Of a stretch of DNA of 49,950 nucleotides, positions 398-9,238 are shown one piece after another. Made by a program: the position numbers and the translations under genes. The stretch spans positions 1-49,950 of the forward strand of contig CALVIU010000001.1 in assembly GCA_944331835.1 (NCBI GenBank), in the 5' to 3' direction. A model generated the notes under the pieces. That model was not told where the DNA came from. It saw only the letters and a program-made list of their open reading frames with translations, and ran no database searches. Within the stretch, counting starts at the first letter, position 1; every line of letters starts with the position of its first letter. The stretch is from an uncultured Bacilli bacterium. Its GTDB lineage: Bacteria; Bacillota_I; Bacilli_A; RF39; UBA660.

Positions 398-3300
398 TCA
401 ATTTTTGGGTTTTAAACCTAAATAAAGTTCACTTTCTCCATCCAAAGTTGGAAATTCACAATTAAATAATTCTTTATATCTACTAACTAAAATATAAAAT
501 AAATTTATTCCTTTATTAAGTTCTTGTAAAGTATTATCTTCACTTATATTAAATATCTCAGCAATCTCTTGAACAGAGTGGATATTCCCGTCATAAATTC
601 CTAAACGTAGTGAAGTCATTAATTGACACTTTAATGGAAGCAACTTAATAAATTCTTTAAAGAAAGGATGCTTAAATGGGCTTTCAATAGTTTCATATTC
701 CTTGAAAGTTAAAATTTCTATACTTTCGCTAGGAACTTTTTCTGCTACTTCTCCCTTTGATCGAATATCATTTAAAATATTATTCAGTACTGGAATATAT
801 TTTGTTATGTCTACCCCAACTTTTTTGCTTTTATCTAAATTAATACCAAAAATATCCTGTAATTCTATTAATAACTCTGAGTTTAACGATTCTTTTATTT
901 TATCAAGTTCATCATCACTACACATTAATATTCTACTCAAGAAATTTGCTAAATACTCTTGATAATTAGCCACAAATAAAGAAACATAACTTTGCATCTC
1001 ATCACTTTCTGATATATTAGCATCATTACCTAAATTTTCACCAAATACTAAAGCTAGTTTATAATAACTTGCTTTAAAATTAAGCTTATAATAAAAAACA
1101 TAGTCCATAAATTCTTTAAAAGATACCCCTAATAAAGCTTTTAAATTGATTATTTTATTTCCATCCTTTTTCTTTTTTCGTTTTCTTATATAACTAATTA
1201 TTTGTTCAAATTCACTTTTCAAATTTTTATCTAAAGTATTAAGGTCCACTACTCTATCAAAATTTGGTCCAAATAAATTTACCATAAATTTATATGCCAT
1301 AGAATTTTTATTCATAGCCATTATATTTGCTAACTCTTCATCACTGCATTTAAGAATGTCTTTTAGACTTACAACATTTTTATGTTTCTTATCAATCTTT
1401 TTCCTAAACCTCTCTAAACCAACAAAATAAGTTCTTTTTTCTCCCAAAGTTAATTCACTAAAGTTATTTTCTTCTTCTAAAAAAGTATTACCATATAACT
1501 TGACAAAAACGTTATGTCTTAAAGAAGGCTTTTTAATATCATTTAAAATATAAGTAATATCTTCTTCACTTGCCCCTAAAATATCTTTTAAAAACTTTGG
1601 TCTACTTATATTTATTAATTTTTCTTTTAAATTTGGATATAATGCATCTAACTTTTGCAACTCATCATTTGATAAATTAATTTCATTTAAAGGACTACTA
1701 AGACCTATACCATAATATTTACTCCAAAATTGATATTCCTCACTTTGAAATAATAATATAGCTAAAGTAAAAATATCTTCATCACTACATTCCAGTTTTT
1801 CTTTCAAATAAACCTTATTCCTTCTACCATTAATTTTAGTATCAACTGGTATATAATTTGAATTATTAATAAATCTTTGTAACTTCTTCATAGCTACTGC
1901 ATACTTTGAATGCATACGCGTTGGAATTGGGTTGCATTCATCTAAATTTTTACCATGCCTAAGCAAAATAATTATCCGATCTTTTTCAGACATTTCACTT
2001 AATATTTTTAAAACTAACTCCTTATCTTCTTTTGTAATATCCCAAACCTCCCGCTTTTTTTCCTCTTTTAAATTCTCATCATTAACATAACCACTAAATT
2101 TATCTTTAGCTACATTTCTAAACTTTCTTAAAATCCTATCTATTATCTGCCGAACTCGTTCTCCAGTAACACCAACTACTAAACTAATTTCTTCTAAATT
2201 ATGTTCCCTGTCATATAACGGATTATATTTTCCCGGTTCTTGAATGCCATACCGCATTCTTATAATTTTTTCTTCTCTTTCATTTAGGGCACTTTCTAAA
2301 AATTTATTTAAATATGAAGGAAGCATTGATTGAATCACATTATCTTCGACGTTCTCCGAACTTGCCAAGAAATTATCCATTCTCGTTTTCCCTTTATCAT
2401 TATTTTTATCAATTACTTCAGCATCAATAGATAACGTAACATTAGGAAGTCCCAATATATTTTTTATAACAATTTCATCGAATCCTGTAGCATCACTAAT
2501 TTCTTTGGGACTAACTTTCCTACCTAATTCACTTTCTAAATTCTTCCTAGCCATAAATATTTTATTTCTAAGTTCCATAGTATGAAGTGGTATTTTAATT
2601 GTATTTCCTAAATTAGCAATAGACTTAATTATTGCTTGTCTAATCCAAAATATTGCATAAGTGGAAAATCTATAACCTTTGTCATAATCGAATTTTTCAA
2701 CAGCTTTCATTAAACCATTATTTCCCTCTTGAATTAAATCAAGAAAATCTAATCCTCTACCAATATACTTCTTAGCAACACTTACTACTAATCTTAAATT
2801 AGAAGTAATAATATTATCACGATAAAACTTATATTTTTTATCTAATTTTTTTCGTTCCTCTTCACTTAAATTAGTAACTAACTTTTCCTTAATTTCTTCA
2901 ATTTTTTGGAAATAATCCACAATCTCATCATAAGACAAAATTGGATATTCTCCAATTTCCCGCAAATAAGTCCTAATACTATCAGTAGTATAATATTCAC
3001 TTTTATCAGGAATATCTTCTATTTTCTCTTCTATATCATCGACATATATTCCTTTAACTATAGTATAAGAAGTTAAAAAATTAATAACTTCTTCATTATC
3101 TACTAACTTAGATAAATAATCATAATTTATTTTATCTTTACCATCAAATAATTCACTTAATATTTCATCTAACTCAGGATATTTCTTAAGTAAACTTGCT
3201 AAATAATTGATATCAAACATAATATCAAATTTATATAATGCATTTATTATATAACTTAAATTTTTTATTAAAGTTCTCTTTTTATTTTGGAGTTGCTCTA

Positions 3301-3478
3301 TAAACCAAGCCATTTCTAAATTATTATAGTCTTGTTTTAAATGATTTAAGACAAGACTATAAGCAGTATTTAAATTTATAATATCTAGACCTATTAAAGA
3401 TTCAAAATAATTTCTATCTTTTTTATAAAATGAAAAACTTCTTTGTAGTCTTTTTATAATATCTGTTCTACTTAACAT
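398..3478 (-). CDS. Giant sigma-70 family protein (1026 aa): N-terminal unknown domain, sigma regions 1.2-4.2, and a ~570 aa repeat-containing C-terminal extension ending in a second region-4-like HTH
   Basis: ORF-track protein. Residues ~165-455 carry [18 protein letters not shown] (r1.2), [57 protein letters not shown] (r2), [14 protein letters not shown] (r3.0) and [12 protein letters not shown]...[17 protein letters not shown] (r4). A strong SD (GGGGGGAGGAA) precedes the ATG. The gene lies 30 nt downstream of the preceding paralogue, so it is probably co-transcribed with it. Confidence 0.8.
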   Translation of the reverse strand: [1026 protein letters not shown]

Positions 3479-8700: not shown

Positions 8701-9238
8701 GTAAAATTGCATACTCTTTAATCTCCAATAAATACATTTTAACACTATCACTTGTATAGTGATTATCAGGGATACCTAAAAAATCTATATCTTCTAAATC
8801 TTCATCAAATTTACCTTTAATAGTAGCATATAAACCTAAAAAATTGATAGCCTCTTCACTGTCTACTAAACTAGCTAAATAATCATAATTAACACTTGTC
8901 TTATCTTTAAATATATCAGCAAGCAGTTCTTCTAACACTGGATATTTTTTTAATAAGGCATTTAAATAATCAATGTCTATCACCAAGTTATACTTTTTTA
9001 AACACTCTAATAAATATCTTAATGAACTAAGTAAAGATTTTTTATTGTCTTGAAGTTTTTCAACAAACCAATCCATATCAAAATTTTGCCAATTGTTTCT
9101 TAAATCATTTAAAACAATAACAGCAGCTTCTTTGTAACTAATAATATTTAAAGATAATATAGTTTCAAAATAGTCCGTATCTTTTTTATAGAAAGCAAAT
9201 TCTCGCATTAATCTATTTTTAATATTTAATCTAACCAT
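5780..9238 (-). CDS. Giant sigma-70 family protein (1152 aa), the most RpoD-like of the three, with a ~690 aa C-terminal extension
   Basis: Motifs: [63 protein letters not shown] (an intact RpoD-box-like r2.3/2.4), [15 protein letters not shown], and [53 protein letters not shown] (canonical r4.2 RERIRQIE). SD GGAGGG precedes the ATG at 9238. Confidence 0.85.
   Translation of the reverse strand: [1152 protein letters not shown]

Follow-up and report, generated by a model that had tools for sequence, protein, structure and literature searches.

Giant SigA-like genes with repeat tails in a tandem array beside sigK in an uncultured Bacilli bacterium

Primary sigma factors of the SigA/RpoD type (for example Bacillus subtilis SigA, PDB 7CKQ chain F) carry regions 1.2, 2, 3 (with a sigma-finger-like segment) and 4 in this order, together with a core-binding motif and canonical promoter-reading residues in regions 2.4 and 4.2. 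Group 2 sigmas, the non-essential primary-like ones (RpoS, Streptomyces HrdA-D, cyanobacterial SigB-E), combine a core resembling that of primary sigmas with reading residues that are nearly canonical, coexist as paralogues, and are proteins of about 300-400 aa with no C-terminal extension; to our knowledge, they are normally absent from Firmicutes. ECF (group 4) sigmas consist of sigma 2 and sigma 4 only, without regions 1.2 and 3, and in the ECF41, ECF42, ECF44 and ECF56 types an extra domain (SnoaL-like, TPR or metal-binding) is fused after region 4; according to two papers (PMC7730460, PMC9023288), such C-terminal extensions act in cis as regulators of their sigma and take the place of a separate anti-sigma factor. 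Finally, MzaA of the MZA anti-phage system (NF041931, PADLOC PDLC02203) is an oversized sigma-70-family protein whose extra part is N-terminal, its RpoD-like core lying at 440-716 of the 726-position NCBIfam profile.

The window analysed here (a whole stretch of 49,950 nucleotides from an uncultured Bacilli bacterium) contains three co-oriented paralogous genes, called A, B and C below, which adjoin a divergent sigK (Table 1). The first-pass annotation had already described these ORFs, and their coordinates are exactly as it claimed; the three 29-mers that it quoted are located at 2220, 5442 and 7986 (shuffles expect 0 matches), and both the IQEPGK(F/Y)NPLYD insertion and the residue differences between copies in regions 2.4 and 4.2 are there as quoted. 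In DNA, the three genes share repeat families of 285 nt and 145 nt whose copies are 66-77% identical, and at the protein level the paralogues show 42% identity to A. The idea that the long ORFs could be assembly chimeras is contradicted by the A-B-C order, which is the same in two independent assemblies (L015 from Logan, L016 from ENA), and by full-length copies of B and C, each found in 43-77 member sequences on many contigs.

Table 1. Position in the window of the array genes, their neighbour and the parts of gene A
Feature	Position	Strand	Description
gene C	398..3478	-	ORF, 1026 aa: complete giant sigma, repeats, terminal domain
gene B	3509..5599	-	ORF, 696 aa: region 4, six repeats, terminal domain
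gene A	5780..9238	-	ORF, 1152 aa: N-terminal domain, sigma 1.2-4, linker, 7 repeats, terminal domain
A residues 1042-1152, terminal domain	5783..6115	-	invariant [11 protein letters not shown] motif, then degenerate region-4-like helix-turn-helix
A residues 494-1041, repeats	6116..7759	-	seven ~70-aa four-helix repeats
A residues 458-493, linker	7760..7867	-	basic (pI 9.8), predicted disordered, pLDDT 26-35
A residues 161-457, sigma core	7868..8758	-	regions 1.2, 2, 3, 4; 8-aa insertion in region 4
A residues 1-160, N-terminal domain	8759..9238	-	acidic (pI 4.7), all-helical, no known family
putative array promoter	9261..9289	-	TTGGAA, 17-nt spacer, TGt-TACAAT (extended -10); 22 nt upstream of A start codon
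sigK	9314..10006	+	NCBIfam SigK 308.5 bits vs cut-off 252; pro-sigma-K with N-terminal pro-sequence

As had been proposed, A and C each contain a complete SigA/RpoD-like core (residues ~165-455), with Pfam r2, r3 and r4 above their gathering cut-offs; region 1.2 is above the Pfam cut-off in C, and in A an alignment with cyanobacterial SigA shows it, starting at residue 159. The best PDB sequence match of A is B. subtilis SigA (195.8 bits), its top Foldseek matches are SigA chains, and its core carries the core-binding motif DLIQEGN.GL. Because regions 1.2, 2, 3 and 4 are present, A and C are predicted to bind core RNA polymerase, and they would open promoters like any sigma-70-family factor. 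A, which keeps the canonical WWIRQAITR and TRERIRQIE ([18 protein letters not shown], its SigA reading residues), would use canonical -35/-10 promoters, and C, in which these residues are altered ([18 protein letters not shown]), would prefer a different motif; the copies would then differ in promoter specificity, as the first-pass annotation supposed.

The giant sigmas also depart from SigA/RpoD in several respects. A has an insertion in region 4 and a novel N-terminal domain that is not recognisable as region 1.1; both proteins carry a C-terminal tail of 570-700 aa, made of repeats and a second region-4-like domain; and they are fast-evolving tandem paralogues, none of which adjoins dnaG among the loci examined. 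On TIGR02393 (RpoD equivalog) the cores score 252 (A) and 225, against a cut-off of 354. The earlier label "group-1-like" is thus right as to shape, and to shape only, since a core that lies below the RpoD equivalog cut-offs and evolves fast does not prove housekeeping status.

The N-terminal domain of A, which could not be placed in the first reading, matches nothing at the sequence level in Pfam or the PDB; AlphaFold2 models it as nine helices (pLDDT about 70-83), and in the best 150 family representatives it is found only alongside a sigma core. What had been reported beyond the core simply as extra sequence is indeed present, and has a definite anatomy of repeats followed by a terminal domain (or cap) of ~110 aa. 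The repeat consensus is L.eiLgcskEEi...y.iL.k.FGeNLd...yy..I..LKk, its FG.NL motif recurring periodically in A (residues 525, 618, 691, 788, 861, 937 and 1007). A repeat HMM finds 7 copies in A (54-70 bits), 6 in B and 5 in C, which has one degenerate first unit besides, and in distant relatives outside its training it finds 2-10 copies (E down to 8e-69). Structure models of the repeats are helical, with pLDDT 70-89 within units, and their pTM is low (0.26-0.34), from which we take the units to behave as beads on a string.

Judged from its sequence, the cap is a second copy of sigma region 4 that has degenerated, the -35-contacting residues R-E-R..R-Q being replaced by E-Q-E..L-M. A clean terminal-domain profile aligns with region 4 in hhalign (E=1.2e-4, 46 columns, in register), a jackhmmer search started from the domain reaches true region 4, and its comparison with Pfam r4 gives E=0.024. 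The repeats resemble the terminal domain (P=8e-4) and region 4 (P=0.01), and Pfam r4_2 weakly matches the first unit of C; the hhalign probabilities of repeat and cap against region 4 (4-55%) denote weak similarity, and Foldseek returned nothing below E=0.3 for the tail. Most likely, the tail would have arisen by serial duplication of a region-4-like unit and would act as a protein-binding arm, not as a DNA-reading one; repeats and cap are neutral to acidic in charge. The arm is expected to extend outwards from region 4, on the upstream side of the holoenzyme, and in that place could regulate the sigma, tether it or keep it auto-inhibited. By analogy, the nearest precedent for how it might work would be the ECF extensions, although these are neither repeats nor a second region 4.

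Gene B calls for a different reading. Three sigma-family genes had been counted, and only A and C are sigma factors, B being devoid of regions 1.2-3: it begins at the region 3/4 linker, Pfam finds no region 2 or 3 in it, and its sole Pfam match, to r4, scores 23.6 bits, just below the 24.1 cut-off. Region 4 (about residues 16-89) is followed by the repeats (117-565) and the terminal domain (592-696). B has its own ribosome-binding site, is separated from A by a 180-bp spacer, and is 696 aa long in many assemblies; the version in strain L016 is mosaic, part B and part A in sequence, and is split into two ORFs by a frameshift. A paralogue without regions 2 and 3, it is therefore not a sigma factor, and it is predicted to be unable to read promoters alone or to act as one. 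Like the repeat-only relatives described below, it would most likely compete for whatever the arm binds.

The architecture is not confined to this window. An extension profile searched against 1.84 billion representatives matched 344 representative clusters, so that we are dealing with a family of several hundred clusters; 82 of the best 150 have a sigma core, and the others are repeat-plus-cap only. The 11 genome loci all come from MAGs of low-GC uncultured Bacilli/'Tenericutes' (two are Candidatus Onthocola, from chicken gut), and consist of 1-3 tandem genes, core-less repeat-only paralogues occurring too; L001 and L002, which are the closest relatives, carry one giant gene each. The array usually adjoins sigK (in L001, L002, L004, L005, L006, L008, L010, L011, L014, L016 and L019), and lies away from it in one genome (L007/L018, a two-gene array). 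The divergent spacer, 75 bp here, is 60-95 bp across at least 9 species whose giant sigmas are 30-35% identical. In 8/8 loci the first array gene is preceded, at 22-32 nt, by a TG.TA.AAT motif (3-4% per locus in shuffles), and the array would be transcribed from this conserved extended -10 promoter of vegetative type.

Outside its sigma core, this architecture corresponds to no named family in Pfam, NCBIfam, PHROG or PADLOC, and our literature searches found no description of it. MzaA, the only PADLOC match, scores 245 against a cut-off of 800, and no Mza partner genes were seen at the array. In a giant SigA of the P0037/P0023 type (about 1011 aa, GCA_965646225.1), the N-terminal domain is related to that of the array proteins, the region-4-like terminal domain is homologous to theirs, and a sigma core is present too. 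This core, at 323 bits to B. subtilis SigA, is nearly that of a canonical SigA, the mid-tail is made of different repeats (L..ED.EL..LRWG type) unmatched by the repeat HMM, and the gene lies singly in a thrS/argS neighbourhood, away from sigK.

The array genes evolve fast, with dN/dS of 0.25-0.39 versus 0.05-0.17 in flanking genes (a ratio inflated by dS estimates 2-4 times lower in the array genes), and the arrays change rapidly by repeat gain and loss, gene conversion and tandem duplication. The core of A is 58-63% identical to that of L002, where flanking genes reach 75-91%; core-tree branches are longer than those between primary sigmas of different phyla; and A (196 bits to B. subtilis SigA, about P0037's similarity to RpoS, 199-205 bits) is about as distant from primary sigmas as RpoS itself. 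Because of this fast evolution and RpoS-like distance, the TIGR02393 score and the lack of dnaG linkage, we lean somewhat towards A being an accessory SigA paralogue of the group 2 kind, and not the sole housekeeping sigma.

The alternative that A, with its best-conserved counterpart in each genome, is the principal housekeeping sigma, the other members being duplicates, is somewhat less probable. Canonical SigA reading residues occur in one copy or more in each of the genomes examined, L001 and L002 have only one giant gene each, and the array promoter is of vegetative type. P0037, which shares the N-terminal and terminal domains, scores as high as an ordinary Firmicute SigA, and a 718-aa copy in L008/L010 (98% identity) has a dN/dS of 0.13, its dN being lower than that of any other gene in the locus. 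An accessory group 2 sigma would moreover be unusual in Firmicutes, as far as we know. No canonical sigA was found in about 350 kb of related DNA, which covers no more than a small fraction of these genomes. The divergence of the A core, its score below the RpoD equivalog cut-offs and the absence of dnaG nearby argue against this alternative, as do tandem duplication, truncation and gene conversion, events that a gene both essential and single-copy does not usually undergo.

A part for the giant sigmas in the sporulation programme, as partners of sigma K in the mother cell, is in our opinion rather unlikely. The sigK adjacency, conserved between such divergent proteins, invites this idea, as do cotE and a polysaccharide deacetylase gene near the L014 array and the spore formation predicted for RFN20-like orders (PMC10868615), which applies here only if the genomes belong there. 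Adjacency by itself, however, shows no co-regulation, the conserved promoter is of SigA-type extended -10 and not of sigma-E or sigma-K type, and neither the L007/L018 array nor P0037 is beside sigK. Less credible still is that B, C and the other divergent copies are functionless decaying duplicates, in a graveyard beside one working gene: degenerate copies of 555 aa and 286 aa, the frameshift in L016 and the raised dN/dS point that way, but in 43-77 sequences drawn from many assemblies B and C are intact and do not vary in length, dN/dS is well below 1, C keeps all its sigma domains above Pfam thresholds, and the region-4-plus-repeat-plus-cap and repeat-only architectures recur in many separate clusters with proper start codons. 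Least probable is a purely inferential idea, suggested by the fast evolution, repeat-number variation, gene conversion, free-standing decoy-like paralogues, region-4 ancestry of the cap and the known defence role of the large sigma MzaA, that in a fast-evolving defence-related locus the tail is a chain of region-4 decoys soaking up region-4-binding inhibitors such as phage anti-sigma proteins, since it is the sigma core alone that gives the PADLOC and NCBIfam matches to MzaA, the array has no defence genes at its flanks, and no phage link was seen.

Our preferred reading, to which we give a probability of about one half, is that the genes belong to a family of extended sigma factors of SigA type, specific to this lineage, with the arm, the role of B and the expression proposed above. 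Within this family there is a gradient of SigA-likeness, from P0037 to the 714-aa P0012 type (253 bits to B. subtilis SigA), and L005_10025 reaches 312 bits on TIGR02393. Because of this gradient, and because the 718-aa copy is as constrained as its housekeeping neighbours, at least some family members may be principal sigmas.

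Genes A, B and C stand together on one strand with the positions and lengths that the first-pass annotation had given them (see the table), and their paralogy is borne out, both B and C being 42% identical to A; the three 29-mers quoted for it lie at 2220, 5442 and 7986, where chance would give none, and direct repeats at the DNA level (285 nt and 145 nt) are 66-77% identical among the three genes. The array is not an assembly chimera: the order A-B-C is the same in two independent assemblies (L015 from Logan and L016 from ENA), and B and C occur full-length in 43-77 sequences on many contigs. 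The neighbour is likewise a SigK, as judged from its sequence, with 308.5 bits on PRK05803 (NCBIfam cut-off 252), a borderline 297.9 on TIGR02846 (cut-off 298.65), and a pro-sequence-like N-terminus (...YSN.IFPEPLS.EEE) kept in 8 loci.

Coordinates of genes, spacers and proteins (window positions unless a related genome locus is named)
Feature	Location	Strand	Description
Gene A	9238..5780	minus	ORF, 1152 aa
Gene B	5599..3509	minus	ORF, 696 aa; own ribosome-binding site, 180-bp spacer before
Gene C	3478..398	minus	ORF, 1026 aa
sigK	9314..10006	plus	Across 75-bp spacer from A; NCBIfam match
sigK/giant-sigma spacer	9239-9313		61-93 bp throughout (window, L001, L002, L004, L005, L008, L011, L014)
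Left-end promoter	13-41	minus	Near-consensus: TTGACG, 17-nt spacer, TG-n-TATAAT; points out of the contig's left end
Long ORF	36232-39249	plus	1005 aa, after a 233-aa ORF
P0037	L012:10001-13036 (GCA_965646225.1)		1011 aa; near-canonical SigA core
Repeat-only protein	L005:6575-10009		Repeats and cap
Repeat-only protein	L006:8159-11575		P0122 type; repeats and cap
Protein between KH gene and sigK	L014:3225-5048		607 aa; no Pfam matches
Degenerate sigma-like protein	L014:5859-7505		548-555 aa; heads array
Degenerate sigma-like protein	L008:4260-5924		548-555 aa; heads array
L016 stretch	L016:12101-14700 (ERZ1643251 NODE-1381)		Corresponds to window 3424-5761

All three genes had been called members of the sigma-70 family, and this stands for A and C, in which regions 2, 3 and 4 exceed the Pfam gathering scores: region 2 (PF04542) with 64.4 bits in A and 73.2 in C (cut-off 24), region 3 with 49.2 and 29.4 (cut-off 25.3), and region 4 (PF04545) with 61.7 and 50.3 (cut-off 24.1). 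Region 1.2 is found in C by Pfam (22.6 against a cut-off of 22) and in A through an alignment to cyanobacterial SigA that starts at residue 159. This is the group 1/2 (RpoD-like) plan, with regions 1.2 and 3 besides 2 and 4, and not the ECF plan (sigma 2 and sigma 4 only, with a fused regulatory domain); the best-scoring models are those of RpoD, and the model of the ECF superfamily gets no more than 106-115 bits. B. subtilis SigA is the top match of A in a PDB sequence search (195.8 bits), SigA chains are its top matches in a fold search, and its full model matched sigma chains only. By equivalog score, A and C fall outside the primary sigma RpoD/SigA families, since they miss all NCBIfam RpoD cut-offs (251.6 and 225.3 on TIGR02393, cut-off 354; 247.6 and 219.2 on PRK09210, cut-off 572), the TIGR02393 cut-off being a strict one because even P0037, a very SigA-like relative, scores just 330.

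For B the claim has to be given up. This gene starts exactly at the region 3/4 linker, has no Pfam match to region 2 (PF04542) and reaches 23.6 for region 4, slightly below the cut-off; as it contains neither region 2 nor region 3, it is a paralogue and not a sigma factor. Compared with canonical sigmas, region 4 of A, B and C is longer by an insertion of 8 aa. A retains the canonical reading residues (WWIRQAITR and TRERIRQIE); those of C are altered, with FWIRQAIIK in region 2.4, and the reading segment of region 4 in B is VTDKVREIE.

Beyond region 4 comes a tail composed of a linker (residues 458-493 in A; basic, pI 9.8, and predicted to be disordered), an array of repeats and a terminal domain, the cap. 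The motif FG.NL recurs in the tail of A at residues 525, 618, 691, 788, 861, 937 and 1007, and an HMM built from these units counts seven copies within residues 494-1041 of A, six in B and five in C (where the alignment adds a degenerate first unit), as well as 2-10 copies in distant relatives outside its training set. The consensus of 403 distinct instances is L.eiLgcskEEi..li..Lkn.k.y.iL.K.FGeNLd...n...L...ek..yy..I..LKk. AlphaFold2 folds each unit into four helices (pLDDT 70-89), and the low pTM (0.26, 0.34) means that the models show no confident packing between units. Profile searches of the PDB with the repeat and the N-terminal domain gave only designed toroid repeats or noise, and those of Pfam nothing. 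Foldseek searches of the PDB and BFVD with the tail model gave nothing below E=0.3; the weak matches include sigma-A region 4/flap-tip chimeras (probability 0.44-0.47), which may be taken as suggestive only. At the other end of the protein, residues 1-160 form an acidic, helical domain without Pfam or PDB sequence matches, and a profile of this domain found two fragments only in a 5.8-billion-protein set, a search that missed known members too.

The last ~110 residues open with the most conserved motif of the family (11 residues), and several comparisons bring this cap close to region 4. A profile of the terminal domain alone aligns with region 4 in register over 46 columns (hhalign E=1.2e-4, probability 55%), jackhmmer seeded with the domain recovers genuine region 4, both that of these proteins and that of ordinary RpoDs, and the Pfam r4 match is sub-threshold (E=0.024). 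In the region-4 register, the -35-contacting T-R-E-R-I-R-Q of A is replaced by S-E-Q-E-V-L-M, and the domain is acidic (pI about 5); because of these two features we read the cap as a region-4 fold that would no longer read DNA. Weak similarity links the repeat to the cap (hhalign P=8e-4) and to region 4 (P=0.01), and the first unit of C has a weak Pfam r4_2 match, which is compatible with, and does not prove, an origin of the whole tail by serial duplication of a region-4-like unit. A repeat that is a plain copy of region 4 was set aside: a first hhalign comparison gave 9 columns with P=0.3, and a richer profile P=0.01, a weak lead only. Two short proteins matched by the tail profile, P0265 and P0268 (210-241 aa), combine a cap-like domain with ..SIYE.FK.YTREQVDEMLSKL.EEE..L..RYGEDLDNP.. 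and may be single-unit relatives of the repeat, useful for tracing its origin.

Only about ten 90%-identity clusters match A over its full length; when the tail profile is run against 1.84 billion representatives, 344 clusters reach E<=1e-3, and 126 of them E<=1e-10. A sigma core is present in 82 of the best 150 of these 344, and many others among the 150 consist of repeats and cap (up to 12 repeats) or, like B, of region 4, repeats and cap; the repeat-only or core-less members inspected begin with a start-codon methionine. One family of 714 aa has the plan of A with three repeats. Proteins of 1060-1140 aa with 10-12 repeats and a cap, without sigma domains, are seen in L005 and L006 (P0122 type) and as P0131-P0133, the genes in the two loci lying directly 5' of that of a 1201-aa giant sigma. 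In UMGS910-type genomes (L008, L014) the array is headed by a strongly degenerate sigma-like protein with a region 2 remnant and two cap-like domains.

All eleven genome loci belong to uncultured Bacilli/"Tenericutes" MAGs with 23-29% GC, among them two Candidatus Onthocola species from chicken gut. They carry one to three tandem genes, almost always adjoining a divergent sigK, in the order rpsP - KH - (x) - sigK and then the array; an A-type gene stands alone in the closest species (L001, L002). On the 3' side lie polA-fpg in L014, where cotE is also close to the array, and a sortase and a surface protein in the species of the window. In L016 a 227-aa class-B-like sortase (..LILQTCSHH..) and a surface protein of 524 aa, which has a PPHTG motif, are encoded beyond the left-end promoter; the contig of the window ends in that intergenic stretch, and that of L015 about 340 bp beyond C. 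Elsewhere in the window, the long ORF, which has only weak matches to FtsX/ADOP-type permeases and SMC coiled coils, probably encodes an ABC-transporter permease into which a large extracellular or coiled-coil segment is inserted.

In 8 of 8 loci an extended -10 element (TG.TA.AAT) precedes the start codon of the first array gene by 22-32 nt, with a TTGnnA-like hexamer 17 nt further 5' (3-4% per locus in shuffles). The conserved TATGTTA.AAT block in the spacer towards sigK may serve both divergent promoters, and the promoter of sigK itself must extend into the 5' end of the giant gene. Reading a sigma-E- or sigma-K-type promoter into the sigK/A spacer, considered by eye, was set aside, since matches carry no meaning in DNA of 75% A+T.

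The question is then whether A could be the principal sigma of its organism. A principal sigma is single and essential, and in Firmicutes it is usually linked to dnaG; regions 2-4 of the primary sigma RpoD/SigA are very slow to evolve. We think that an accessory sigma is the better reading of A, by roughly 60 to 40. The relatives form a gradient of SigA-likeness: TIGR02393 scores fall from 330 in P0037 through 312 in L005_10025 and 284 in P0012 to 252 in A and 225 in C, and the comparison with B. subtilis SigA, run for three of these, gives 323 bits for P0037, 253 for P0012 and 196 for A. P0037 resembles SigA as closely as an ordinary Firmicute SigA does and possibly is a principal sigma with a tail; its middle repeats differ (L..ED.EL..LRWG...F), and it lies between thrS/DUF308 and a PBP/argS block, adjoined by neither dnaG nor sigK. 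As it combines this SigA-likeness with a related N-terminal domain and a homologous cap, both shared with the giant sigmas, the family may descend from sigma A itself.

Against a principal role for A speak its fast-evolving core, its tandem paralogues with their gene conversion, the long branches of the core tree and the absence of dnaG, both from the window and beside any giant sigma examined (L012, L014, L018). A is 79% identical to its counterpart in L001 and 58% to that in L002, against 82-94% and 75-91% for flanking genes; its core, at 79% and 63% with dN/dS of 0.31-0.33, lacks the slow evolution of a primary sigma. For the whole of A dN/dS is 0.28-0.39, against 0.05-0.17 for flanking genes, and it is also raised in the arrays of L005/L006 and L008/L010, except for a conservative 718-aa copy in the latter pair (dN/dS 0.13, 98% identity). 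In three species pairs, L005/L006 and L008/L010 among them, the dS of array genes is 2-4 times below that of flanking genes, with dN equal or higher; recent recombination, constraint on synonymous sites and an estimation artefact in 25% GC DNA are possible causes. Gene A of L016 is 99% identical to that of the window, and its gene B is a mosaic, with ends 97-99% identical to B of the window and a 2.2-kb interior 87% identical to A and about 70% to B, which indicates gene conversion between the tandem paralogues. This mosaic gene has one repeat more and is broken up into two ORFs (581 and 229 aa), possibly by a frameshift or a sequencing error. The neighbour-joining tree of the core, with long branches everywhere and unstable rooting, was used for branch lengths only.

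Membership of the MZA defence system was rejected, as the PADLOC match to MzaA runs through the core only (244.7 and 208.5 on NF041931, cut-off 800), and the genes annotated nearby (window, L014, L016) are of a housekeeping kind, such as sigK, KH-domain, rpsP, sortase and polA. A phage or mobile origin was also rejected (one weak region-4 match for B by tblastn against phages, core only in PHROGs, none in IMG/VR); the surroundings in the window are ordinary chromosome (ezrA, iscS, thiI, ackA, nrnA, recX, nrdD), and no link of the family to phages or known defence systems was found by tblastn, PHROGs, IMG/VR, PADLOC or BFVD.

Sigma factors are among the best-understood bacterial proteins, and to our knowledge C-terminal additions to them have been recorded only for the small ECF class. 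A full-text literature search found no description of sigmas of this kind. The family is real and unnamed; its members are SigA-like sigmas that carry a repeat tail and, as a second region-4-like domain, a cap. A and C would bind core RNA polymerase through regions 2-4, A presumably reading canonical promoters and C a shifted motif. The tail would leave region 4 at the upstream face of the holoenzyme, by way of its flexible linker, and serve as an arm that binds protein. The cap might take up or imitate the beta-flap/region-4 interface, and B and the repeat-only proteins could act in trans on the same partner of the tail. A bolder proposal, which we hold to be rather unlikely, is that the housekeeping sigma A of this clade is itself a protein of 700-1600 aa with a new N-terminal domain, region-4-derived repeats and a DNA-blind second region 4, the arm and the repeat-only paralogues in trans providing a control or targeting of the principal holoenzyme not known before. 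With such a principal sigma, rivalry between cap and true region 4 for the beta-flap, or recruitment of a partner at the upstream face, is one possibility.

These are SigA/RpoD-like sigmas with 5-12 tandem helical modules and a disabled second promoter-binding domain, accompanied by tail-only paralogues in the same loci, and they point to a layer of control, not studied so far, that acts at the region-4/beta-flap face of RNA polymerase. Principal or accessory, the family, with several hundred clusters that are all unnamed, is open to experiment, and an assay with B. subtilis core RNA polymerase is feasible. If the giant sigma is accessory, Firmicutes would have here their first group-2-like sigmas with a tail acting in cis; if it is truly the principal sigma, the textbook promoter architecture would have to be revisited in a clade of gut bacteria related to mycoplasmas.
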